Assembly (NCBI GenBank): GCA_041653835.1 | Contig: JBAZEP010000003.1 | Location: 3,812-67,811 of the forward strand | Reading direction: 5' to 3' | Source of the DNA: Candidatus Omnitrophota bacterium | GTDB taxonomy: Bacteria; Omnitrophota; Gorgyraeia; Gorgyraeales; Gorgyraeaceae | Length of the DNA: 64,000 nt | In this document: piece after piece, positions 1 to 43,716 of the stretch | Numbering within the stretch: position 1 is the first letter of the stretch | Layout of the letters: the number at the start of each line of letters is the position of its first letter | Made by a program: the position numbers and the translations under genes | The notes under the pieces: generated by a model | Told to the model about the DNA's origin: nothing | Seen by the model: only the letters and a program-made list of their open reading frames with translations | Database searches by the model: none

Positions 1-1515
1 AGAAAAACAAAGAAAGAAGCAGCCATCAAAGAAAAAGATGATAAAAAGCAAACAGCCATAGAGAAAACTAAAGAGGCGCAAGATGCACTCACTAGTATTA
101 AAAATACTTTGAAACACACCCTTAACATTAACGACAAGATTAATTGGAATTCTTTATTGGATGAATCTAAATACCCTAAGAACAAGCCTAAAAGTCCAGA
201 ATTATTTACCATGCCAATTGAGCCCCAGAAAAATGACAAAGAATTTACGCCCAAAATAAACTTTATTATATCGTTGTTTTCTAGTTTAAAACAAAAAAGA
301 ATTGGAGAGGCGAATTGTTTATTCGAACGAGCCTATTCTGAATGGAAAATAAAAAAGAACAGTACGGAAGAAAATAATAGAAAATTACTCGAAAAGTATG
401 AAGAAGAAAGTTTGAAATGGCAAGAAGAGGAGAAAAAATATATTGTAAAGAGAGAAGAGAAAAATAAACGAATTTTAGAAAAAAAGGAAAAGTATTTTAG
501 AAAAGATCCAGCTATGATCGCAGAGTATTGTGAAATGATCTTGTCGAATTCGCAATATCCTGATACCTTTCCGCAGGAATTCGATGTTGAATATATACCC
601 GAATCTAAGATTTTGTTAGTAGATTATTTTCTACCAAGCATAGAAGATTTGCCGACATTAAAGGAAGTCAAATATAACATTTCACAAGACCAATTCAAAG
701 AAATACAAATTTCTGAATCAGATTTAAATAAATTATATGATAGCCTCTTATATCAAATAACACTCAGGACAATGCATGAGTTATATGAAGCAGATGTGAT
801 TGATGCTGTCGCCTCAATTATATTCAATGGATATGTTAGATTCATAGATAGCGGCACAGGAAAAGAAGTTTGTGCCTGCATTCTTTCAATTCAAGTGCAA
901 AGAGAAGATTTCTTAAATATTAATCTTGAGAATATTGAACCTAAAGCTTGTTTTAAAGCTTTAAAAGGCATAGGGAGCAGCAAACTTCACGGACTTGCAC
1001 CAATAGCTCCGATTATGAAACTGAACAAAGAAGATAAAAGATTTATAGTGCCATATGAAGTAGCGGGCAAAATTGATGAAGGAACAAATATTGCGGCAAT
1101 GGATTGGCAAGATTTTGAAAACTTAATTAGAGAACTATTTGAAAAAGAATTTGTTCCCGAAGGAGGAGAGGTAAAAATAACTAGAGCAAGTCGAGATGAA
1201 GGTGTAGATGCGGTAATATTTGATCCTGATCCGATTCGTGGTGGCAAGATTGTGATACAGGCTAAAAGGTATACTAATGTAGTTGGGGTTTCAGCTGTTC
1301 GCGATTTATATGGCACAGTTCTTAATGAAGGAGCGATGAAAGGTATTCTTGTTACCACAGCTGATTATGGTCCTGATTCCTATAAATTTGCCCAAGATAA
1401 ACCAATAACTTTATTAAATGGTAACAACCTTTTGCATCTATTGGAAAAGCATGGTCATAAGGCTAAAATTGATATAAGAGAGGCAAAGAAAATTTTAGGT
1501 AAAAAGGTAACTTGA
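1..1515 (+). CDS. Mrr-type restriction endonuclease catalytic-domain protein. A Lys/Glu-rich coiled-coil N-terminal region is fused to a C-terminal Mrr_cat PD-(D/E)xK nuclease domain. The gene is probably 5'-truncated by the window edge.
   Basis: The frame is open from nt 1, and the ORF track starts at TTG 109. The C-terminus (WQDFENLIRELF...GVDAVIFDPD...IVIQAKRYTNVVGVSAVRDLYG...GILVTTADY) matches the Mrr_cat restriction-endonuclease domain pattern (D..D...QCKRY...V..L.G......GI.VTT..F). The gene is AT-rich. Confidence 0.6.
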   Translation, partial: RKTKKEAAIKEKDDKKQTAIEKTKEAQDALTSIKNTLKHTLNINDKINWNSLLDESKYPKNKPKSPELFTMPIEPQKNDKEFTPKINFIISLFSSLKQKRIGEANCLFERAYSEWKIKKNSTEENNRKLLEKYEEESLKWQEEEKKYIVKREEKNKRILEKKEKYFRKDPAMIAEYCEMILSNSQYPDTFPQEFDVEYIPESKILLVDYFLPSIEDLPTLKEVKYNISQDQFKEIQISESDLNKLYDSLLYQITLRTMHELYEADVIDAVASIIFNGYVRFIDSGTGKEVCACILSIQVQREDFLNINLENIEPKACFKALKGIGSSKLHGLAPIAPIMKLNKEDKRFIVPYEVAGKIDEGTNIAAMDWQDFENLIRELFEKEFVPEGGEVKITRASRDEGVDAVIFDPDPIRGGKIVIQAKRYTNVVGVSAVRDLYGTVLNEGAMKGILVTTADYGPDSYKFAQDKPITLLNGNNLLHLLEKHGHKAKIDIREAKKILGKKVT

Positions 1516-1755
1516 TAATGGTAAATATGGACATGTCAAAAAGGGACACACCTATTTGAAGAGTGTCCCCAGATGACACGTCCCCCATAAGTCCCATCTG
1601 GACATCCCTAGTTAGCAAAACGAGTTTCTCGAGATTTCCTTGAGAAAAAGGCTAAGGGCATATTGATTTCATTGAAAGTTGAAAAAGAACATTCCGCTAA
1701 TAGTTGTTAATAGTAACTTCGCTTGTTTTACCTAACAAATTGTATATTTTTTGCT

Positions 1756-1784
1756 TGACATATTAACAATCATTTGCTAAAGTT
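1756..1784 (+). promoter_or_regulatory. sigma70-like promoter TTGACA-N17-TAAAGT upstream of the HTH paralog array
   Basis: Consensus -35 hexamer and a TAnnnT -10, about 40 nt upstream of paralog 1. Confidence 0.5.
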
Positions 1785-1823
1785 TATAGATAATCAAATG
1801 AGATTATAATAAGGAGGGTGCAA

Positions 1824-2105
1824 ATGGAAAGAATATTGCAAAGAATCGATAATAATTTGAAAATTATATTATCAATTCTACTGGAAAAGAAAATAAAGGA
1901 AGGCAACCTTTCGGACCAACAGCAAGTATCTTTTCTTCAGGAAAGAGGATTAGGGATAGCAGAGATAGCTATGGTGCTAGGTAAAACGTCAAATGCTGTG
2001 CGTATTTTACTCACTCGTTTGCGCAAAAAAGGTCAGAAGATTCCTAAAGGAGGAAATCAATGTCAGAAAAAATTCAAGAAAATCAGGAGATACTTAAGAG
2101 ACTAG
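1824..2105 (+). CDS. small HTH protein (sigma-70 region-4 / resolvase-HTH-like), paralog 1 of 5 tandem copies
   Basis: The RBS AAGGAGGG sits 6 nt upstream of the ATG. A C-terminal HTH (GLGIAEIAMVLGKTSNAVRILLTRLRKK) is shared by the four downstream paralogs. The 3' tail overlaps the start of paralog 2. Confidence 0.55.
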   Translation: MERILQRIDNNLKIILSILLEKKIKEGNLSDQQQVSFLQERGLGIAEIAMVLGKTSNAVRILLTRLRKKGQKIPKGGNQCQKKFKKIRRYLRD

Positions 2106-2287
2106 ATATTATTATTAGATTGCTATTGCGGAATATGAAGTCAAAAGAGAGTAATTTATTATTTATGGAACAGATTGGATTGTTAAAGGAGATAGGTTTA
2201 TCTACAGCAGATATCTCTAAAATAACTGGGAAACCGTCAAATTATGTTAGTTCAGTTATTAAGCATTTATCTAAAAAAAGGGGTTAG
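2060..2287 (+). CDS. small HTH protein, paralog 2 of 5
   Basis: RBS AAAGGAGGA; same L.rLD.iI.LL...G....dIA.ilG...n.V pattern as its neighbours. Confidence 0.55.
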   Translation: MSEKIQENQEILKRLDIIIRLLLRNMKSKESNLLFMEQIGLLKEIGLSTADISKITGKPSNYVSSVIKHLSKKRG

Positions 2288-2292
2288 TAGAC

Positions 2293-2499
2293 ATGGAAGA
2301 AAAAAGCCTTTCAGATTTAAGCAAGAAGGTTGATATGGTAATAAAATTAATGATTGCAGGTTTGACTGCGGATAAACAGTTGACTGACCAAGTAAAAATT
2401 CTTGCTTTGGCTGGAATCAAACCTAAAGATATTGCAGATATTCTAGGAACTACTCCAAATACGGTTAGTGTTCTATTGTCAAGAAACAAGAGAAAGTGA
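2293..2499 (+). CDS. small HTH protein, paralog 3 of 5
   Basis: RBS AAAGGGG; HTH motif IADILGTTPNTVSVLLSRNKRK. Confidence 0.55.
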   Translation: MEEKSLSDLSKKVDMVIKLMIAGLTADKQLTDQVKILALAGIKPKDIADILGTTPNTVSVLLSRNKRK

Positions 2500-2508
2500 G
2501 AGGAGAAT

Positions 2509-2763
2509 ATGGAAAAGAAAAAGCCTAAAAGTAATCCGCAAGATGATTCAGTAGATATGACTAAAGTGCTTCTTGAACGATTGATAGTTATTAGTGAAAA
2601 CTCAATGATCGTAAATCTTGCCCTAAAGGGTATTCCTCATCAACAGATCAGAAAAATGGCACAATGCGATATGCGACGAATAACAAGATTATTAAAACCA
2701 GTTAATAAATATATTAAGAAATTTGTTGCCGAGAACGGGACTATAATAGATAAGGAGAAATAA
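2509..2763 (+). CDS. small HTH-like protein, paralog 4 of 5 (most divergent)
   Basis: RBS GAGGAG. It shares the N-terminal L..LI.I and Q.I.....G pattern, but the HTH is degenerate. Confidence 0.5.
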   Translation: MEKKKPKSNPQDDSVDMTKVLLERLIVISENSMIVNLALKGIPHQQIRKMAQCDMRRITRLLKPVNKYIKKFVAENGTIIDKEK

Positions 2764-2764
2764 T

Positions 2765-2980
2765 ATGTCTAAAGATGATGAAATATTACAAAAGTTAGAT
2801 TTGGTCATCAAATTGTTAGGGATAATAGCCACACAGGCAGATCTGTCAAAAAAACTACAACGAGAACAAATTGTTATCCTGGATAAGCACGGTTTTAGAA
2901 ATAAAGATATTGCAAATATTTTTGGGATTAAAGCACAACAAGTAAACAATGCATTATTAGGTAATAAAAAAAGAAAATGA
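2765..2980 (+). CDS. small HTH protein, paralog 5 of 5
   Basis: RBS AAGGAGA; LQKLDLVIKLL...KDIANIFGIKAQQVNNALLGNKKRK. Confidence 0.55.
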   Translation: MSKDDEILQKLDLVIKLLGIIATQADLSKKLQREQIVILDKHGFRNKDIANIFGIKAQQVNNALLGNKKRK

Positions 2981-4038
2981 TTTTTAAGGGGAAAAAATAT
3001 AAAATTGCAATGCTATTAGGCGCTGGAGCGACTAGGGGAGCATTGAGGGGTGTGTCAAGGCCAGTTATAAGAGCCCCATTAAATAAAGATTTTTTTGAAG
3101 TCGCTAAGAGATTTATTTCTTGCCCAGAAGGTAGAAGATATAAAAATTGTTTTATTCGTGTAAGCAAATTTATTTCTGATCAAATGATGCCGTTTAACAA
3201 AAGGCATCCAACTATGGAAGAAGTTTTTAGCACACTTTTTATGTCTAAAGATTTGCCTGTTATCTTTAAAACAGGAAGGGGTAGAATAAGGAAGGAAGGT
3301 TTTAGGCCTGAAATTAGAGATTTTTTAGTTTTGCTAATTGCTATATTTAGATTTCTTCAAATGAATTTAAAACACAAAGATAACATAGACCATTATGCAA
3401 GATTAGTTGCAAAGTTGGAAGAGGGAGATAGCATTATTACTTTGAATTATGATACTTTAGTAGATAATGCCTTGTTGGGTGTTGGATGGAGACCAGAAAA
3501 TGGCTATGGATTCAACGCTTCTTCTAAAATAATCTATAGTAATTTAAGGGCTGTGAAAAGAAGATTTAAAAATGTTTATCTTTTAAAACCACATGGGTCT
3601 CTAAATTGGTTTGCAAGAGGTAAAATTTCTAATCTTGAAGAAACATTGAGTAGGAAAAATGTTTCAAGGATTGATATTGCAAATGCTCCGCGGCTATATA
3701 CTTTAAAGCAAGATAAGTATGTAAGATTTTTTATTCCCCCTCTTTATACAAAATTTTTCAATAATGATTTCTGGAGATATCTTTGGCATGAATCTTATTT
3801 GAGATTAAAGAATTGTAATTGTTTAATAATAATAGGTTGTTCGTTGATTACAACTGACTATCATTTACGAGCGATACTTTCAAAAGTATTAAAAAGTAAG
3901 AAAAAGTTTAAGAAAATTATCATAGTTGACAAAAATCTAAAAGTAGTGGGTAACCTAAAGAAATTTTTTAGAGGTGCTAGTTTTTCTGGTTGTGAAACAT
4001 ACAATACATTTACGGAATACATAGAAAGTTTAAATTAA
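2977..4038 (+). CDS. SIR2-like (SIR2_2/DUF4020-type) domain protein, candidate NADase defence effector
   Basis: Motifs LLGAGATRGA (glycine-rich NAD-binding), TLNYDTLVDN (TNYD motif) and LLKPHGSLNWF (HG catalytic motif) match defence-associated SIR2_2 proteins. Its start overlaps the stop of HTH paralog 5. Confidence 0.6.
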   Translation: MIFKGKKYKIAMLLGAGATRGALRGVSRPVIRAPLNKDFFEVAKRFISCPEGRRYKNCFIRVSKFISDQMMPFNKRHPTMEEVFSTLFMSKDLPVIFKTGRGRIRKEGFRPEIRDFLVLLIAIFRFLQMNLKHKDNIDHYARLVAKLEEGDSIITLNYDTLVDNALLGVGWRPENGYGFNASSKIIYSNLRAVKRRFKNVYLLKPHGSLNWFARGKISNLEETLSRKNVSRIDIANAPRLYTLKQDKYVRFFIPPLYTKFFNNDFWRYLWHESYLRLKNCNCLIIIGCSLITTDYHLRAILSKVLKSKKKFKKIIIVDKNLKVVGNLKKFFRGASFSGCETYNTFTEYIESLN

Positions 4039-4067
4039 CCAAGTTTATAAAGAATTATGTTAATTTT

Positions 4068-4769
4068 TTGCAAATGCCCAAGAACAGATTAAGCAAAAAA
4101 CTTTTATTAAAAGTTGCTAGTAAGTCTAAACATAAACTTAAATACGTAAGAGAACAAATAAGTAAACGAGCGAGTAGGTTGAGCATTAATGCAGAAGCAG
4201 CTCTGATCCTTTGGGCAAAAGAATTAGGCATAGGGACAGCCGCATTTCAACATTCTTTACCTCCTCATATCCAGTTAGACATTAGAAATAGTTTGTCATC
4301 ACCAGCTGGGCATATTAAGAGCGGGAGAGTATTAAAATCAAAGCGTAATTTAAATATGGTATCCAGTAAATCATTGATTAATATAGACGACTTAATTCAG
4401 GATGATGAGCTTCGCAATAGATGCAAAGATTTATTAATGGCTAAAGATAAGTTTGATCGAGTGATTAGAGAAGCAACGACAGTATTAGATCATCGAATTA
4501 AAAAGGCGGGAGGTTTGAAAAATATAAATCCAGTAGATGCTGTTGGTAAAGTATTAAATCCAGATCCCAATAAAGCCATTCTTAAAATAAGTGAAGAAAA
4601 GTCCTTACAGGAAGGGTTCTTTTCTATATGCAAAGGGCTAATGTTGGCTTTCCGTGATCCAGCACATCATGAGATTACTGATAATTTTAGCAGGGAAGAG
4701 GCAATAAAGTTTTGTGGTTTAGTAGATATTGTTTTGGGAGCTATCTCGAAATCAAGTAAAATAACTTAA
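4068..4769 (+). CDS. HEPN-like (TIGR02391/Abi-type) domain protein
   Basis: The C-terminal region carries an Rx4H-type motif (FRDPAHHE) in a helical context resembling Abi/HEPN RNase families. The gene sits immediately downstream of the SIR2 gene in the AT-rich island. Confidence 0.45.
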   Translation: MQMPKNRLSKKLLLKVASKSKHKLKYVREQISKRASRLSINAEAALILWAKELGIGTAAFQHSLPPHIQLDIRNSLSSPAGHIKSGRVLKSKRNLNMVSSKSLINIDDLIQDDELRNRCKDLLMAKDKFDRVIREATTVLDHRIKKAGGLKNINPVDAVGKVLNPDPNKAILKISEEKSLQEGFFSICKGLMLAFRDPAHHEITDNFSREEAIKFCGLVDIVLGAISKSSKIT

Positions 4770-5001
4770 TGGTTCTGTAGATATGAACTTAAAACTTCAG
4801 CAGTTCCGCAGGTTTTGATTTCGATGTTTTACCAGCCCTAGCAGGTTTGAGAAAAGCTTTTTGTTTTGCGGGACATAAGATATTGCATTGCTGGGATGTT
4901 GCCTGTCAAAACAAAACAGAGCGAAGCCCACATTACCAAATAATCCATCTTTTGGTTGAGCGTCTTTTCGAAAGCCTGACAGGGATGGCAAAAACACCTT
5001 A

Positions 5002-5044
5002 ACCGCGTAGGATGCCTACGGTAACCTACGCGGTTTTTCTTTTT
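5002..5044 (+). terminator. intrinsic terminator (10-bp stem ACCGCGTAGG/CCTACGCGGT + TTTTCTTTTT)
   Basis: Perfect stem with a 13-nt loop and a T-run, in the non-coding zone after the AT-rich island. Confidence 0.75.
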
Positions 5045-5153
5045 CATTGACACTTTTATAATTTCTGGTAAGATATAGGTACAATTTACTTCAAAAGCGC
5101 GACTGGCGATGCATGCATGGGAAACCATGAGGGAGCGCGAATACGCAAAATCG

Positions 5154-5192
5154 AACGCCTGGGTTTTAAGAATCCAGGCGTTTATTGTTTTT
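5154..5192 (+). terminator. intrinsic terminator (9-bp stem AACGCCTGG/CCAGGCGTT + TATTGTTTTT), 3' end of a candidate small RNA
   Basis: Hairpin plus T-tract about 100 nt downstream of the promoter-like TTGACA at 5046. No ORF lies between them. Confidence 0.65.
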
Positions 5193-5211
5193 GGCCCTTG
5201 ACATTTTGCCC

Positions 5212-5490
5212 ATGAATTCAGGATATTACTTTTATATCTTAGTATGTAGCGATGGTTCTAAATATTATGGCCATACAAATAATTTAGCGAAACGTTTTTC
5301 ATATCATTCAAAAGGATGTGTTTCCTCTACAAAAAGCAAGCGGCCGGTAAAGTTGGTTTATTATGAGGAATTTAATTCCCGGCCAGAAGCTTTTAGAAGA
5401 GAAATGCAGTTTAAAAACGGCAGGACAAGAAAAGAGACTATAGAAAACCTAATAAACTCTTTCGACATGGGCAAAATGTCAAGGGTTTAA
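5212..5490 (+). CDS. GIY-YIG nuclease superfamily protein (YhbQ/UPF0213-like), copy 1
   Basis: [30 protein letters not shown]...[11 protein letters not shown]...[11 protein letters not shown] matches the GIY-YIG motif. The track ORF starts at TTG 5185; the ATG is at 5212. Confidence 0.7.
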
Positions 5491-5566
5491 TTCGCAGACG
5501 GCCTTCGGCCTACAAGTTACGTCGCTACGCTCCATAACTTGTCTGCTCATTAAAGGAGACTATTAT

Positions 5567-7777
5567 ATGTTCACACGCGGACGTTGGGACAAAACAATAG
5601 ATATAAGGGATTTTATTAATAGGAATTATAAGCCGTATGACGGGGATGAGTCATTTTTGTGCGGGCCTACAGCCAGGACCAAAAAACTCTGGCAGGAATG
5701 CCTTACGCTTTTCAAGAAAGAGCACGATAAAGGCGGGGTTTTTGATATCGACGTATCAACTGTATCGACTATCACAAGCCACAAGCCCGGTTATATAGAT
5801 AAGAAGCTTGAGATCATTAAGGGACTGCAGACCGATAAGCCGCTTAAAAGGGCGATAAAGCCGCTGGGCGGCATACGCATGGTGGAGCAGGCCTGCGAGG
5901 ACTATGGGTATGAACTGGATAATAAGATCAAAGAGATATATTTAAAATATCGCAAGACGCATAATGACGGTGTGTTCGATTCTTATACCACGGATATATT
6001 AAGGGCCAGGCGCACAGGACTTATTACAGGCCTGCCGGATAATTATTCAAGGGGAAGGATAATAGGCGATTATAGACGCGTGGCGCTCTACGGCATAGAA
6101 AAGCTTATTAAAGCGAAAAAACATGATAAGGAGCTATTAGAGGATTATTCTTCCCAGGAGGCAGTAAAGTTAAGGGAAGAGATAGCTGACCAGATAGGAG
6201 CCTTGGAAGATATTATAAAATTAGGTAGCTCCTACGGCTTTGACCTGACAAGGCCGGCGGAAGACGCGAAAGAAGCTTTCCAATGGGTTTATCTGGCTTA
6301 TCTCGCGGCCATAAAGGAACAGGACGGGGCAGCAATGAGCCTTGGAAGCGTGAGTAATTTCTTTGATATATACATTGAAAGAGATATTAACCTGGGAAAA
6401 TTGACTGAAGAAAAGGCTCAGGAACTGGTGGATGACTTTGTGATAAAACTGCGCATGGTGCGGCACTTAAGGCCAAAATCATATGATGAGATATTCGCGG
6501 GCGATCCGGTATGGATAACAGAGAGTATAGCGGGGATAGGTATAGACGGCAGGCACAAGGTCACAAAGACATCTTACAGGTTCTTACAGACTTTATACAA
6601 CCTGGGGCCTGCTCCTGAGCCGAATCTTACGGTTTTGTGGTCATCCCGGCTTCCTGAGAATTTTAAGAGATTCTGCGCGAAAGTTTCCATTACCACGAGC
6701 TCTATCCAGTATGAGAATGATGACCTGATGCGCTCCATAGGCGGGGATGATTACAGTATTTCATGCTGTGTGTCGCTTTTAAAGAACGGAAGTGAGATGC
6801 AGTATTTCGGGGCGAGATGTAATCTCGCGAAGGTATTGCTCTACGCGCTAAATGAGGGAAGGGATGAGATCACAGGAGAAACAGTTGTCCCGGGCATAGC
6901 GCCTATAAGTTCTGAGCCACTAGACCATGATGAGGTAAAAGAGCGTTTTATGCAGGTCCTGCGCTGGACCACGAGGACATATGTCCAGGCGCTTAATATC
7001 ATCCATTCAGTGCATGATACGTATTATTACGAACGCTCGCAGATGGCTTTACTTAATACGGAACTCACGCGTTATATGGCATTCGGCATAGCCGGCTTGT
7101 CTGTAGTGGCTGATTCTTTAAGCGCTATACGTTACGCCAAAGTCAGCGCTATACGCAATAATAAAGGCCTTACAACGGATTTTAAGATCAAGGGAGATTT
7201 TTACGCATTTGGGAATGATGATGACAGGGTGGATGGGAGAGTCGTGGACCTCGTTACCACGTTCCTCTCTGAGATCAAAAAACATAAATTTTACAGGGAT
7301 TCTCTTCCCGCGGTTTCTATCCTTACAATTACTTCGAACGTAATGTATGGCAAGAAAACAGGCGCTACCCCTGACGGAAGGAAAAAAGGCGAACCTTTTG
7401 CCCCAGGCGCGAATCCCATGCACGGCAGGGATAAAAACGGGATAGTGGCATCTTTAAATTCCGTAGCGAGTATCCCTTATTCCGAATGCAGGGATGGTAT
7501 ATCGAACACATTTACCACTGTGCCGGATACATTGGGGAAGACTAAGGACGAGCGGATAACGAACCTCGCGGGTTTACTCGAAGGATATTTTATTAAAGGC
7601 GCACAGCACTTGAATGTCAATGTGATAGATAAGGCGACGCTTAAAGACGCGATGAAGCATCCGCATAAATATCCGCAGTTAACTATCCGCGTGTCAGGAT
7701 ACGCTGTTCATTTTAATAAGTTGTCAGGTGAACAGCAGAGAGAGGTCCTGGCAAGGACATTTCATGAAAGCATGTAA
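5567..7777 (+). CDS. pflB: formate C-acetyltransferase (pyruvate formate-lyase)
   Basis: The N-terminus ([20 protein letters not shown]) and the C-terminal glycyl-radical motif (RVSGYAVHF) are both present; the protein is 736 aa. Confidence 0.95.
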
Positions 7778-28429: not shown

Positions 28430-28504
28430 GCGCCTGTGGCCTAATGGATAGGGCACCAGCCTCCGGAGCTGGTCGTGCAGGTTCGATTCCTGCCAGGCGC
28501 ACCA
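28430..28504 (+). tRNA. tRNA-Arg (anticodon CCG), CCA encoded
   Basis: Cloverleaf with GCGCCTG/CAGGCGC acceptor stem, anticodon loop CTCCGGA and GTTCGATTC T-loop. Confidence 0.85.
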
Positions 28505-28537
28505 TGTAAGCTATGCATGCAGTGGCTGGAATAACGC

Positions 28538-28643
28538 AGGAATCGAAGGGAGACTGATAGATGCGACAAACAGGAGCATCTGCTTATCAGTCGAGTGGCC
28601 GACCCGCCGCAGGCGGGCGCCGATTCCTGCCAGGCGCACCATG
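28538..28643 (+). repeat. tRNA-associated conserved element ending in a 23-nt direct repeat of the tRNA-Arg 3' end
   Basis: CGATTCCTGCCAGGCGCACCATG occurs at 28484-28506 and again at 28621-28643. The upstream part aligns with the element at 43181-43298 (TCGAAG.GAG...ACGAC.AACAGGAG...GAGTGGCCGACCCG-hairpin-GGGCGCCGA). Confidence 0.8.
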
Positions 28644-28658
28644 AAGGAGAATTCTCAA

Positions 28659-30131
28659 ATGCAATATATACTCTCCATCGACCAGGGCACGACGGGAAGC
28701 AGGGCTGTTATTTATGATAAGCGCGGCAGGATAATAACAAGCGCGTACGAAGAATTCCCGCAGTATTTTCCAAAACCCGGATGGGTAGAACATGACCCTG
28801 AAGAGATATGGAAAAGCGTTAATAATTCTATCCAGAAAGTACTCAAAAAAATTCCAGCGGACAATATCAAAGGTATCGGCATTACAAACCAGAGGGAAAC
28901 AACGGTTTTATGGGACAGGGAATCCGGCAAGCCTGTTTATAACGCTATTGTATGGCAGTGCAGACGGACGGCTTCGAGATGCGAGGGGTTGAAAAGAAAA
29001 AGCGCCTTTTTCAGGAAAAAGACAGGCCTCCCCGTAGACGCGTATTTTTCGGCAACCAAGATAGAGTGGATATTAAAGAATGTAAAAGGGGTTTCGGAAA
29101 AAGCCAGGGCAGGGAAAATATTATTCGGCACGACCGACAGCTGGCTCTTGTGGAAACTTACCGGCGGAAAAGCCCACGCGACTGATTACACCAACGCGTC
29201 CCGCACAATGCTTTTCAATATCAAGGAGATGAAGTGGGACGCTGGAATATTAAGAGAATTTGAAATCCCGAAGCAGATCCTGCCCGAAGTCAAAAGCTCA
29301 TCGGGCATCTTCGGTTATACTGTAAGAACGGGAAGGCTCTTGGCCGGCATTCCCATATCGGGCATTGCCGGGGACCAGCAGGCGGCTTTGTTCGGCCAGG
29401 CATGCTTTGAGCCGGGCACCATGAAAAATACATACGGGACAGGATGTTTTATTTTGTTGAATACAGGCGCCAGAAGGATTATTTCGAAATACGGGCTTAT
29501 CACTACCCTTGGATGCGGAAATAACGGGAAGCCTGTCTATGTATTGGAAGGGTCAGTATTTATCGCGGGCGCGGCCATACACTGGATCAGGGACGGGCTT
29601 AAGCTTTTATCATGCGGATGCGAGTCCGAAAAGATGGCGCTTTCAGTCAAGGATAACGCGGGCGTTTATTTTGTGCCCGCTCTTACAGGGCTCGGCGCGC
29701 CTTATTGGGACCAGGACGCGCGCGGCGCCATATTCGGGATCACAAGAGGCACCAACGGGAATCATATTGTGAGAGCGGCGCTCGAAGCGATGTGTTATCA
29801 GACCCGCGATGTCCTGGAAGCCATGCGTAAAGATTCAGGGTTAAAAATAAAAAGCCTTAAGATAGACGGCGGCGCGTCCGCGAATGATTTTCTGTGCAGG
29901 TTCCAGGCGGATATACTGAGGATCAATGTAGTGAAGCCCAGGGTAACGGAAACTACGTCCCTGGGCGCGGCGTATCTTGCGGGCCTCGCGCTTGGATATT
30001 GGAAAGATACCAGCGAGATCAAGAGACTCTGGAAAAAAGACAGGGTTTTCATGCCTGAAATGTCAGGGGAAAAAGCGGATTCCCTATATAAAGGCTGGCT
30101 TGACGCTGTCAGGCGCACGCTTACTAGATGA
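28659..30131 (+). CDS. glpK: glycerol kinase
   Basis: YILSIDQGTTGSRAVIYD...GWVEHDPEEIW matches GlpK. The ATG at 28659 sits 8 nt after a GAAGGAGA RBS. Confidence 0.9.
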   Translation: MQYILSIDQGTTGSRAVIYDKRGRIITSAYEEFPQYFPKPGWVEHDPEEIWKSVNNSIQKVLKKIPADNIKGIGITNQRETTVLWDRESGKPVYNAIVWQCRRTASRCEGLKRKSAFFRKKTGLPVDAYFSATKIEWILKNVKGVSEKARAGKILFGTTDSWLLWKLTGGKAHATDYTNASRTMLFNIKEMKWDAGILREFEIPKQILPEVKSSSGIFGYTVRTGRLLAGIPISGIAGDQQAALFGQACFEPGTMKNTYGTGCFILLNTGARRIISKYGLITTLGCGNNGKPVYVLEGSVFIAGAAIHWIRDGLKLLSCGCESEKMALSVKDNAGVYFVPALTGLGAPYWDQDARGAIFGITRGTNGNHIVRAALEAMCYQTRDVLEAMRKDSGLKIKSLKIDGGASANDFLCRFQADILRINVVKPRVTETTSLGAAYLAGLALGYWKDTSEIKRLWKKDRVFMPEMSGEKADSLYKGWLDAVRRTLTR

Positions 30132-42730: not shown

Positions 42731-42807
42731 GCGCCCGTAGCTCAATTGGATAGAGTGGCTGGCTTCGAACCAGCAGGTTGGGTGTTCGATTCACCCCGGG
42801 CGCACCA
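42731..42807 (+). tRNA. tRNA-Arg (anticodon TCG)
   Basis: Cloverleaf with anticodon loop CTTCGAA. CCA is encoded. Confidence 0.8.
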
Positions 42808-42820
42808 TGCCTAAATATTA

Positions 42821-42849
42821 TTGACGGATTTTTTAACCTGTGATATCAT
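42821..42849 (+). promoter_or_regulatory. promoter TTGACG-N17-(TGa)TATCAT for the tRNA Lys-Leu-Gly cluster
   Basis: Near-consensus -35 and an extended -10, 27 nt upstream of tRNA-Lys. Confidence 0.55.
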
Positions 42850-42875
42850 TTAATCTTAACATCTGAACTAAGAGT

Positions 42876-42951
42876 GCCCCCATAGCTCAGTTGGTAGAGC
42901 ACCTGACTCTTAATCAGGGTGTCACAGGTTCGAGCCCTGTTGGGGGTACCA
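42876..42951 (+). tRNA. tRNA-Lys (anticodon CTT)
   Basis: Anticodon loop CTCTTAA. CCA is encoded. Confidence 0.8.
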
Positions 42952-42952
42952 C

Positions 42953-43037
42953 GCGAGGGTGGCGGAATTGGCAGACGCGCTAGCCTTAGGAGCTAGTGGG
43001 GAGACCCCTGAGGGTTCGACTCCCTCCTCTCGCACCA
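42953..43037 (+). tRNA. tRNA-Leu (anticodon TAG), long variable arm
   Basis: Anticodon loop CTTAGGA with an extra arm; 85 nt. Confidence 0.8.
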
Positions 43038-43091: not shown

Positions 43092-43166
43092 GCGGGAGTA
43101 GCTCAGTGGTAGAGCTTCTCGTTGCCAACGAGAAGGTCGCGGGTTCGAACCCCGTCTCCCGCTCCA
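43092..43166 (+). tRNA. tRNA-Gly (anticodon GCC)
   Basis: GCGGGAGTAGCTCAGTGGTAGAGC...TTGCCAA...GGTTCGAAC. Confidence 0.85.
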
Positions 43167-43180
43167 TTGTTTTAGCAGTA

Positions 43181-43298
43181 GGGGTTCGAAGAGAGCCCTG
43201 TTTTGAAATACGACGAACAGGAGGATTTCAAGGGCGAGTGGCCGACCCGTAGTCCGCCGTTAGGCGGACGAAGGGCGCCGAACCCCGTCTCCCGCTCC
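43181..43298 (+). repeat. tRNA-associated conserved element ending in a 20-nt direct repeat of the tRNA-Gly 3' end
   Basis: CGAACCCCGTCTCCCGCTCC occurs at 43146-43165 and again at 43279-43298. It shares GAGTGGCCGACCCG...GGGCGCCGA and upstream blocks with the element at 28538-28643. Confidence 0.8.
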
Positions 43299-43371
43299 GA
43301 GTTCCGCCGAAGGCGGAACGAGTCCCGAGCAGCAATTTAGCTTGAAGATAGCTGCGAGGGACAAGATAAAA

Positions 43372-43632
43372 ATGTGGTATTTATATATAGTAAAGTGTAA
43401 GGACAGTTCTTTATATACCGGCATATCTAAAAATGTTAAAGATAGAGTGTTGGCGCATAATAACGGCAAAGGTTCAAAGTATACTAGGAATAGAAAACCC
43501 GTAGAGTTAATATATACAGAAGAATTTGGAACCAAGAGTGAGGCATTAAAAAGGGAAATAGGAATAAAAAAGCTTAGCGCCAAGAATAAAGATAGATTAG
43601 TACGGAAAAAAGAAAAATATAGATTAGGCTAG
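43372..43632 (+). CDS. GIY-YIG nuclease superfamily protein (YhbQ/UPF0213-like), copy 2
   Basis: WYLYIVKCKDSSLYTGISKNVKDRVLAHNNGKGSKYTRNRKPVELIYTEEF...ALKREIGIKK. Confidence 0.7.
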   Translation: MWYLYIVKCKDSSLYTGISKNVKDRVLAHNNGKGSKYTRNRKPVELIYTEEFGTKSEALKREIGIKKLSAKNKDRLVRKKEKYRLG

Positions 43633-43716
43633 CAAGCAAATAGGTCCCTCGCCGCCCGATGGTAAAAACTATAGCGGCTCGGGATCGAATTTGCTTCGCA
43701 AATTCGGGAGGAACAG

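Follow-up and report, generated by a model that had tools for sequence, protein, structure and literature searches.

The stretch of DNA analysed here, called the window, is 64,000 nucleotides (nt) long and comes from Candidatus Omnitrophota bacterium (assembly GCA_041653835.1, contig JBAZEP010000003.1, positions 3,812 to 67,811, forward). It contains two copies of a small structured element, each located behind a tRNA gene and each ending in a second copy of the 3' end of that tRNA, and one of them is directly followed by a gene for a GIY-YIG nuclease; all features described below are on the forward strand of the window. tRNA-Gly(GCC) (43092 to 43166; ARAGORN; Rfam tRNA, 72.4 bits) is intact, encodes its CCA and closes the cluster Arg(TCG)-Lys(CTT)-Leu(TAG)-Gly, and tRNA-Arg(CCG) (28430 to 28504; ARAGORN, Rfam) stands alone. 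The 20-nt sequence CGAACCCCGTCTCCCGCTCC, which a first-pass annotation had reported as a repeat of the tRNA-Gly 3' end, occurs exactly twice in the window, at 43146 to 43165 and 43279 to 43298, and the chance expectation for an exact 20-mer pair in 64 kb is about 0.002. The copy within the tRNA (X1, C56 to A76) spans 43146 to 43166, and the downstream copy (X2, 43279 to 43298) is an exact copy of tRNA-Gly positions 56 to 75, as seen by repeat search and junction comparison. The repeat stops at C75 because the downstream copy reads CCG where the tRNA has CCA, and it does so because the cassette of the GIY-YIG gene starts after C75.

The insert between the end of tRNA-Gly and X2 measures 112 nt (43167 to 43278), not the 118 nt first given for the element. 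It begins with a spacer (43167 to 43179) that is copy-specific and, in the comparison of copies, unconserved in the family. The spacer is followed by the arm LA AGGGGTTCG (43180 to 43188), which is the reverse complement of tRNA-Gly positions 56 to 64 and, from folds and covariation, makes the 5' strand of a helix P1 (8 base pairs, bp, in this copy) whose 3' strand is X2. Between the arm and X2 lies the three-way-junction core (43189 to 43278; alignment, covariance model), formed by the AAGAGAG junction, the P2 hairpin (43195 to 43235), the invariant CGAGTGGCCGACCCG (43235 to 43249), P3 with its variable inner hairpin, and the end GGGCGC (43273 to 43278).

The sister element behind tRNA-Arg(CCG) (28536 to 28643; repeat, fold, covariance model) has its arm GCAGGAATCG at 28536 to 28545, its core at 28546 to 28620 and its X2 at 28621 to 28643, and the latter forms an exact 23-nt repeat with X1 at 28484 to 28506. 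Both window repeats start at the T-loop C56 and run to the tRNA 3' end. The homology between the two elements, which had been proposed from inspection of the sequence, is borne out by blocks common to both inserts in alignment (TCGAAGRGAG, CGACRAACAGGAG, the exact 15-mer CGAGTGGCCGACCCG and GGGCGCCGA), by the 15-mer, whose window occurrences are only in these two elements, and by a covariance model built from 30 copies, which has exactly two matches in the window, these copies, with 95.6 and 83 bits. Single-strand folding gives both of them the same three-way junction with P2 and P3 (z-scores of -3.3 and -3.0 against shuffled sequences), and their P2 hairpins have the same shape with different sequences. 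A promoter-like site is present upstream of tRNA-Lys and a terminator between tRNA-Gly and the element was not found, so from the sequence the element is most likely co-transcribed with its tRNA. A long open reading frame (ORF) starts directly behind the Arg element, its ribosome-binding site and its start codon coming no more than 3 nt after X2 (region 28621 to 28662); we tentatively take it, from its translation alone, to be a glycerol kinase. Neither a promoter-like nor a terminator-like site was found between this X2 and the ORF, and the ORF may therefore be transcribed through tRNA-Arg(CCG) and the element.

Further members of the family were gathered by pattern scans of genomes, with one genome per species, and of metagenomes, the latter yielding at least 120 loci. 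The family counts given below rest on the loci fetched, and labels such as L019, L024 and L029 stand for numbered loci fetched for comparison with the window. About 20 pattern matches in GC-rich coding DNA, mostly from Streptomyces and actinobacteria, were discarded as chance. The true copies in the genome scan are seven, in three Omnitrophota and four Planctomycetota genomes, and every one of them lies behind a tRNA (Ser, Gly, Val, Lys, Ser, Leu and Tyr) with its own arm and its own tRNA-end copy. In a pattern search of the fetched loci 87 of 148 core matches have a same-strand tRNA at most 260 nt upstream, and the remaining matches are mostly contig-end cuts, second tandem units or chance occurrences in GC-rich coding DNA. 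The element-bearing tRNAs have at least 28 different anticodons, and tRNA-adjacent copies are always in the orientation of their tRNA. The covariance model has 103 + 36 matches (about 140) in the fetched Omnitrophota, Planctomycetota and metagenome loci, and the element is counted at least 130 times in all.

Counted from the tRNA side, the loci contain 175 tRNAs, of which 84 are followed by a copy of their positions 56 to 71, and the conserved core lies between the tRNA-end copies in 81 to 82 of these 84 cases (78 with the exact motif, three ending in GGGCGC and one diverged, in L019); an insert derived from the GIY-YIG cassette takes this place in one of the 84. Contig L029 has 5 to 6 copies, and sample Ga0272442, whose origin from a single genome is not shown, has several loci with copies behind different tRNAs. 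The gathering search of Rfam over the window returned tRNA, TPP and ZTP only, and a search at E<=10 over both elements gave nothing credible overlapping them, self-cleaving ribozymes, tmRNA and T-box being among the families covered. The element has no match in a pattern scan of viral contigs and in BLAST searches against plasmids and phages, and full-text literature searches found no description of it. The element family is thus widespread in two phyla of the Planctomycetes-Verrucomicrobia-Chlamydiae group and, as far as can be told, undescribed.

Copies of the family are made of three parts. The first is an arm of 8 to 12 nt, complementary to positions 56 to 65 of the copy's own tRNA. The second is the three-way-junction core of about 90 to 190 nt, which contains GAAGWGA, a variable P2, CGAGTGGCCGACCCG, a variable P3 and GGGCGC. 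The third is the direct copy of the tRNA from the T-loop C56 to the 3' end (positions 56 to 73/76), and its predicted pairing with the arm closes the junction. P1 has 7 to 12 contiguous bp in most of 91 unique copies. In an alignment of 30 sequences 12 of the 24 pairs predicted have compensatory double changes; one pair of P2, for instance, is AU in 14 sequences, GC in 13 and CG in 3. Among 98 distinct copies aligned to the model 97.1% of the cells are paired and double changes occur at 18 of 24 pairs, a result that none of 500 shuffles reaches and for which slid controls give 44 to 54% pairing. Covariation is strong in P1 and P2, and essentially invariant are the junction bases GAAGWGA and GAGU and the base of P3, GGC-C-G-A-CCC with GGGCGCC, in which two single-base bulges are predicted. 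The core meets the tRNA-end copy as GGGCGC followed by CRA. The structure of the element is under selection.

Some copies depart from this plan. In L082, L109, L127 and L130 about 8 nt of the tRNA copy are kept and are followed by a common GC-rich palindrome, CTGCCTGCCGGCAGGCA, which suggests that the P1 strand alone is needed. A variant subfamily with the junction CAGGTGAG follows a truncated 5' tRNA copy (positions 1 to 53) in L086 (8766 to 9069), L142 (415 to 750), L081, L038 and L121, the 5' copy of L142 carrying an additional 15 nt of leader, and in two of these loci the tRNA concerned (His in L086, Ser in L142) then follows once more in intact form; in this subfamily the 5' portion of the tRNA is duplicated instead, again with its boundary at the T loop. 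A long fold-back, in which the entire tRNA end would have been duplicated in inverted form with the arm as its terminus, was considered as the origin of the arm and does not hold in general, the mean identity being 17.2 against 16.3 in shuffles, with few long cases.

The duplication of the tRNA end starts at C56 in all cases. Mismatches between X1 and X2 are rare to about position 67 and rise toward positions 74 to 76, so that identity fades at 73 to 76. The exact repeat is typically 21 nt long when CCA is encoded and 18 nt (plus 0 to 2) when it is not, and in nine cases positions 56 to 73 are identical with CCA present in one copy and not in the other. With this fixed start and CCA-dependent length, the duplication is bounded by two landmarks of the tRNA, its T loop and its 3' end. 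The spacing from X1 to X2 is 113 to 245 nt in 70 of 73 cases, and in the others it is 319, 1085 and 1471 nt. The 1471-nt case (L108) has in the spacer between tRNA-Met and its element an insertion-sequence-like insert (3820 to 5165) with a 390-amino-acid (aa) transposase-like ORF and inverted repeats at its flanks, from which it follows that the spacer tolerates large inserts. When the neighbouring proteins of the fetched loci were clustered, neither an integrase nor a reverse transcriptase nor a transposase was recurrent, and the element has no linked protein gene. The neighbours that do recur have the look of housekeeping genes; they are relatives of the YvcK-type, HPr, PtsI and RadC genes of the window, together with genes presumed from their translations to encode IF3, L20, NusG, L11 and L1.

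T-loop integration by tyrosine integrases, as in mycobacteriophage Ms6, has a classic signature: the tRNA is kept intact, and a direct repeat of its 3' part, starting at the T loop, stands behind it (PMC1762012). The element could accordingly be read as the attachment-site scar of such an island or prophage, later deleted, and it shares with T-loop islands and phages the intact tRNA, the repeat from the T loop, the fixed orientation and the possibility of tandem accumulation. Unlike these, it is about 110 to 190 nt long, without integrase or kilobases of cargo, and its interval stays within the narrow range given above. The same core stands behind at least 28 different tRNAs in two phyla and its hairpins covary, whereas attachment sites have neither a complementary arm nor a covarying junction, and phage, plasmid and viral collections have no match. 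This reading is extremely improbable, and the present evidence already contradicts it. The likeness has a practical side: since duplicated tRNA ends mimic the signature of attachment sites on which island-finding programs rely, such programs would report islands that do not exist or place island borders wrongly in genomes of Omnitrophota and Planctomycetota.

Comparison of copies demonstrates similar cores with different arms. There are 27 pairs with cores at least 90% identical and at least 3 differences in 10 in X. In two pairs the cores, located behind different tRNAs, are 99.2% identical over 130 nt, and the tRNA-derived strand has differences at 5 of 10 positions and the arm at 4 of 10, each arm fitting its own tRNA; the arms thus follow the tRNA and change at a much higher rate than the core. 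A travelling Lys-type arm in the Gly element of L019 was considered and rejected: this arm is one mismatch away from both the Gly and the Lys complements.

Filled, empty and tandem sites are all found in syntenic loci. The order tRNA-Lys, tRNA-Leu, tRNA-Gly and EIIA(Ntr) gene is common to the window, L029, L147, L019 and L054, and L029 also has the upstream RadC gene and tRNA-Arg(TCG) of the window. In this order the window has an element behind Gly only, and tRNA-Arg(TCG), tRNA-Lys(CTT) and tRNA-Leu(TAG) (42731 to 43037; ARAGORN, covariance model) are element-free, being empty sites in comparison with L029, which has an element behind each of them and two behind Gly. Elements are present behind Lys, Leu and Gly in L019 and as tandem units behind Lys and Gly in L054. 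In L147 the element is found after an Arg-like tRNA end located upstream and after Gly, and Lys and Leu are followed by inserts of another kind. L029 and L147, which are nearly identical, agree in the last tRNA-end copy and the native trailer and disagree in the module between the copies; in the syntenic loci generally, this last copy and the trailer are constant and the intervening modules vary.

The last unit of tandem arrays is often truncated at its 3' side. In L030, L054, L071, L083, L098 and L120, which are mostly from Ga0272442, it stops exactly at GGGCGCC, and another repeat family (CTAAAAACAGCGTTTAGCGTCTAGCGACTAGCG..., about 190 nt, itself repeated) replaces the tRNA-end copy. Several tRNA-end copies are followed, before the next tRNA or the EIIA(Ntr) gene, by a recurring promoter-like module of about 45 nt, CTTGACACTCTGACAATG...TGTAAAGTT, at 11 to 55, 237 to 285 and 1585 to 1640 of L147 and, on the reverse strand of L029, at oriented positions 1076 to 1120 and 2050 to 2100. 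Solo elements with no detectable adjoining tRNA occur in L032 (8622 to 8767), L057 (2929 to 3087), L050 and L096; they lie behind terminator-like hairpins and still have a tRNA-like 3' sequence with CCA at their end, and in L050 and L096 a degenerate tRNA-Glu-like 3' end is found just upstream. Large islands behind solo elements were considered as well and discarded, the ORF lists of L032 and L057 being without integrase.

On balance, and with modest confidence, we favour the reading that the element is a non-autonomous mobile structured element that targets the T arm of tRNA genes with an enzyme acting in trans. The element would enter a tRNA gene through a staggered break between the T loop and the 3' end, and the insertion would leave the tRNA intact while positions 56 to 73/76 become duplicated. 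It would then spread among the tRNA genes of the genome, build tandem arrays and be lost again through recombination between the two tRNA-end copies, the insertion enzyme presumably being supplied in trans; from the sites compared above we infer mobility rather than gene conversion. If the element is mobile, it represents a novel means by which a very small non-coding element homes to tRNA genes and leaves them undamaged, and its target-matched arm hints at recognition by base pairing, which in principle is reprogrammable.

Several points weigh against this reading. A transposition intermediate, an enzyme and an autonomous version were not found in the fetched loci, and the making or matching of the inverted arm at each new tRNA has no explanation in it. 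Similar cores with different arms could stem from gene conversion among old resident copies, and the empty sites could without exception be due to loss by way of the direct repeats on either side; the two together are a serious alternative. The loci were gathered by patterns that demand the invariant 15-mer CGAGTGGCCGACCCG, so the apparent sequence conservation is inflated and diverged relatives or other cargo types are perhaps hidden. The alignment behind the pair counts is itself fitted to the covariance model, and the ratio of G-U/U-G to A-C/C-A pairs (25 against 17) does not tell a folded transcript from single-stranded DNA.

The same facts may be taken as those of a resident functional RNA of tRNA operons, a structured 3' extension, closed by a helix made from a copy of the T arm and processed from the tRNA precursor, which acts in cis on tRNA maturation, termination or the next gene and whose copies are old, with cores homogenised within the genome by gene conversion. 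The constant orientation with the tRNA and the lack of a terminator between the two agree with such an RNA, as do the strong covariation and the invariant junction bases. The copies in L082, L109, L127 and L130 that keep 8 nt, the P1 strand only, before the shared GC-rich hairpin, the position of the window Arg(CCG) element in the leader of the downstream ORF, and the core homology that ends sharply at the arms, as conversion tracts would, also speak for it. However, occupancy varies among close syntenic relatives, L029 having the element at Arg(TCG), Lys and Leu where the window is without it, about half of the tRNAs in the sampled loci carry it, and Rfam has no matching family. Arrays with truncated ends, solo copies away from tRNAs and degenerate fragments look selfish and not essential. 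We regard this account as the main rival, possible and rather unlikely; if it is correct, the element represents a widespread unannotated class of structured RNA on the tRNA operons of two poorly studied phyla.

Known mobile repeats resemble the element in part. Miniature inverted-repeat transposable elements (MITEs) and repeats of the repetitive extragenic palindromic (REP) type are short, non-coding, multi-copy, hairpin-rich and served by an enzyme in trans, and the element is likewise short, non-coding, multi-copy and hairpin-rich. Unlike MITEs, it has a duplication of 18 to 21 bp or longer that is bounded by tRNA landmarks, is strictly behind tRNA genes in one orientation and has no fixed terminal inverted repeats, because its arms change with the target. 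The ends of IS200/IS605 and the bridge RNAs of IS110 choose targets by a guide, and the element shares with them a short internal segment complementary to the target beside the insertion point; unlike them, it comes without a transposase or recombinase gene, and its arm varies from copy to copy within a genome. A programmable insertion guided by nucleic acid is conceivable, in which the arm would guide to the T-arm strand, the junction would recruit an enzyme in trans and both arms would be rewritten from the target; the recruited enzyme would possibly be the minimal GIY-YIG nuclease of 86 aa, which itself has no DNA-binding domain. We consider this very doubtful, and if true it would mean that transposition, and the recognition of targets by a GIY-YIG enzyme, can work in a way that has no precedent.

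Integron cassettes form arrays of modules with a recurring folded attC site, which has variable hairpin interiors and bulges and is served by an enzyme in trans. In a similar way the element may be a folded single-stranded DNA cassette for site-specific recombination, comparable to integron attC or to the attachment site of CTX phage: recombination would take place at the three-way junction, P1 would imitate the double-stranded T-arm region, and strands would be exchanged at the T loop by a recombinase whose gene is located elsewhere. Like attC, the element has arrays with a recurring site and a conserved structure with variable hairpin interiors and two predicted single-base bulges at the base of P3. 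Array units are separated by the same 21-nt sequence, with exchangeable modules between constant copies, the crossover point is fixed at C56, and the wobble counts given above do not settle strand polarity. Unlike integrons, the element has no intI, R-box consensus or attI, and one of its three helices is built from the target tRNA. A box of the GTTRRRY type is absent, a recombinase gene is not recurrent near elements in the clustering of neighbours, and the integration of circles that bring their own tRNA end would give chimeric tRNAs at non-cognate sites, of which none was seen. This reading appears quite improbable.

The gene that directly follows the Gly element encodes a single-domain GIY-YIG nuclease of the UPF0213/YhbQ type (43372 to 43632). 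The protein matches Pfam PF01541 with 75.1 bits (cut-off 22.6; E of 5e-21) over profile positions 1 to 76 of 78, and its closest solved relatives are the UPF0213 proteins 1zg2 (E of 1.8e-17) and 1ywl (E of 1.9e-16), over residues 3 to 80. The first-pass annotation was right in calling it YhbQ-like and probably not in its length of 96 aa: a start at ATG 43372 (86 aa) is likelier than at TTG 43342 (96 aa), because the shorter form is 100% identical to an 86-aa NCBI protein from a Candidatus Omnitrophota metagenome-assembled genome. The GIY-YIG domain takes up residues 1 to 73, and there is no added DNA-binding domain. NCBIfam did not give a meaningful name for either of the two window GIY-YIG proteins.

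The gene lies in a cassette with inverted repeats. On the left are a terminal hairpin GTTCCGCC-GAA-GGCGGAAC (43301 to 43319; sequence, junction comparison), which had been noticed before and whose kind precedes every cassette of the clade, and the module H1 GTCCCGAGCAGC...GCTGCGAGGGAC (43322 to 43362; repeat search). On the right (43643 to 43706; repeat search) are the module H2 (43643 to 43686) and the terminal hairpin CGAATTTGC-TTC-GCAAATTCG (43686 to 43706). Close homologs with 78 to 79% identity occupy the same place as the window gene in L147 and L148, and the gene is absent between tRNA-Gly and the EIIA(Ntr) gene in the syntenic L019, L054 and L029. At each of the five junctions in the clade, the cassette or its gene-less form begins immediately behind the CC or CCA that closes a tRNA or a copy of its 3' end. 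L147 has two gene-less minis (452 to 640 and 761 to 900) behind tRNA-Lys and tRNA-Leu(TAG), with repeat modules about 30 to 37 nt apart, which indicates that the cassette ends can be retained or can move when the gene is missing. In L147 and L148 the cassette ends with GGTTCG against a further tRNA-end copy, with a 2-nt CG doubling in the T loop.

Palindromes made of an arm and a tRNA-end copy without core (GGGTTCG joined to CGAACCC, CAGGGTTCG joined to CAAACCCTG) are seen at 1549 to 1566 and 628 to 645 of L147 and at 943 to 956 of L148. They are perfect or near-perfect, lie each at the right end of a GIY-YIG cassette and resemble a T loop that has gained two bases (TTCG-CG-AAC). Possible readings are a vacant target, a trace left by excision of the core, or a piece of the cassette end; a role as empty targets in general was rejected, the palindromes being found only in L147 and L148 beside these cassettes.

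The association of nuclease gene and element had suggested that the nuclease may mobilise the element, and the evidence on this is divided. In this view the UPF0213 GIY-YIG nuclease would break tRNA genes between the T loop and CCA and so drive the insertion or homing of the element, in cis or in trans. SegB of phage T4, the closest functional precedent, has about 220 aa and a DNA-binding domain, and unlike it the window protein, which is known here from its sequence, is an 86-aa UPF0213 catalytic domain. SegB is a free-standing GIY-YIG homing endonuclease located inside a tRNA cluster, and its 27-bp site comprises the T-arm motif GGTTCRANTCC, a degenerate stretch and CCAR, after which it cuts with 2-nt 3' overhangs, or more proximally if CCAR is missing (PMC2330249). 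Its recognition of the T arm and its cut after CCA match the bounds of the duplication, which is also shorter in CCA-less genes, and the start of the window cassette; this match keeps the nuclease idea alive. The window gene resembles SegB further in its location among tRNA genes and its patchy presence among relatives, and this cassette-like gene that starts at tRNA 3' ends agrees in that respect with the original suggestion. The gene stands directly after an element in the window, in L147 and, in more distant forms, in L024 and L073, the cassettes of L147 and L148 end at a further tRNA-end copy with the CG doubling described above, and the Slx1-like prokaryotic group to which the protein belongs (UPF0213/YhbQ, E of 2e-17) is tied to tRNA or RNA metabolism by a TrmH fusion (PMC1564403).

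Other facts go against the nuclease as mobiliser. A GIY-YIG gene is found at 3 of 99 element loci and about 96% have none nearby, and the insert between tRNA-end copies derives from the cassette in only one case of 84. SegB homing makes neither a structured non-coding insert nor a duplication of the tRNA end, the protein is a bare catalytic domain, and the three-way junction and the complementary arm are left unexplained. A position at tRNA ends or elements is seen for GIY-YIG genes in the window, L147, L148, L024 and L073, and adjacency to tRNAs is absent for the UPF0213 homologs in L149 to L152 and for the second paralog of the window. We consider it possible and unlikely that this nuclease drives the element, in cis or in trans.

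Judged from its genomic context, the GIY-YIG gene is rather a separate cassette that seeks tRNA ends independently of the element, and it would be a second mobile unit inserting after the CC of tRNA 3' ends. The common target is sufficient to explain why element and cassette are adjacent, and their co-occurrence of 3 to 4% is about what would be expected for two elements sharing tRNA 3' ends. Unlike the UPF0213 genes of Firmicutes, which have a conserved housekeeping context (L152), the window gene lies in an inverted-repeat cassette at tRNA 3' ends of which gene-less copies exist. The cassette would carry the theme of SegB, a nuclease at tRNA genes, from T-even phages to bacterial chromosomes, and it is a testable lead on the function of the long-orphan UPF0213/YhbQ family.

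The second GIY-YIG paralog of the window (5195 to 5490, with the ORF at 5212 to 5490; profile and repeat searches) has a perfect 20-nt inverted repeat, CCCTTGACATTTTGCCCATG, at 5195 to 5214 with its complement at 5466 to 5485, overlapping the start and the 3' end of the gene. It lies, in the region 5089 to 5567, between a ZTP riboswitch (5089 to 5171) and a long ORF that we assume from its translation alone to be pyruvate formate-lyase-like, and ZTP riboswitches often control formate-lyase-like genes. By its position the paralog looks like a selfish insertion into a riboswitch-gene unit. Its placement at the boundary of an AT-rich island, as first described, holds, since GC content rises there from 31-35% to 44-48%. 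The AT-rich region covers positions 1 to 4800 of the window, with 31 to 35% GC against 44 to 48% over the next several kb, and ends just before the ZTP riboswitch.

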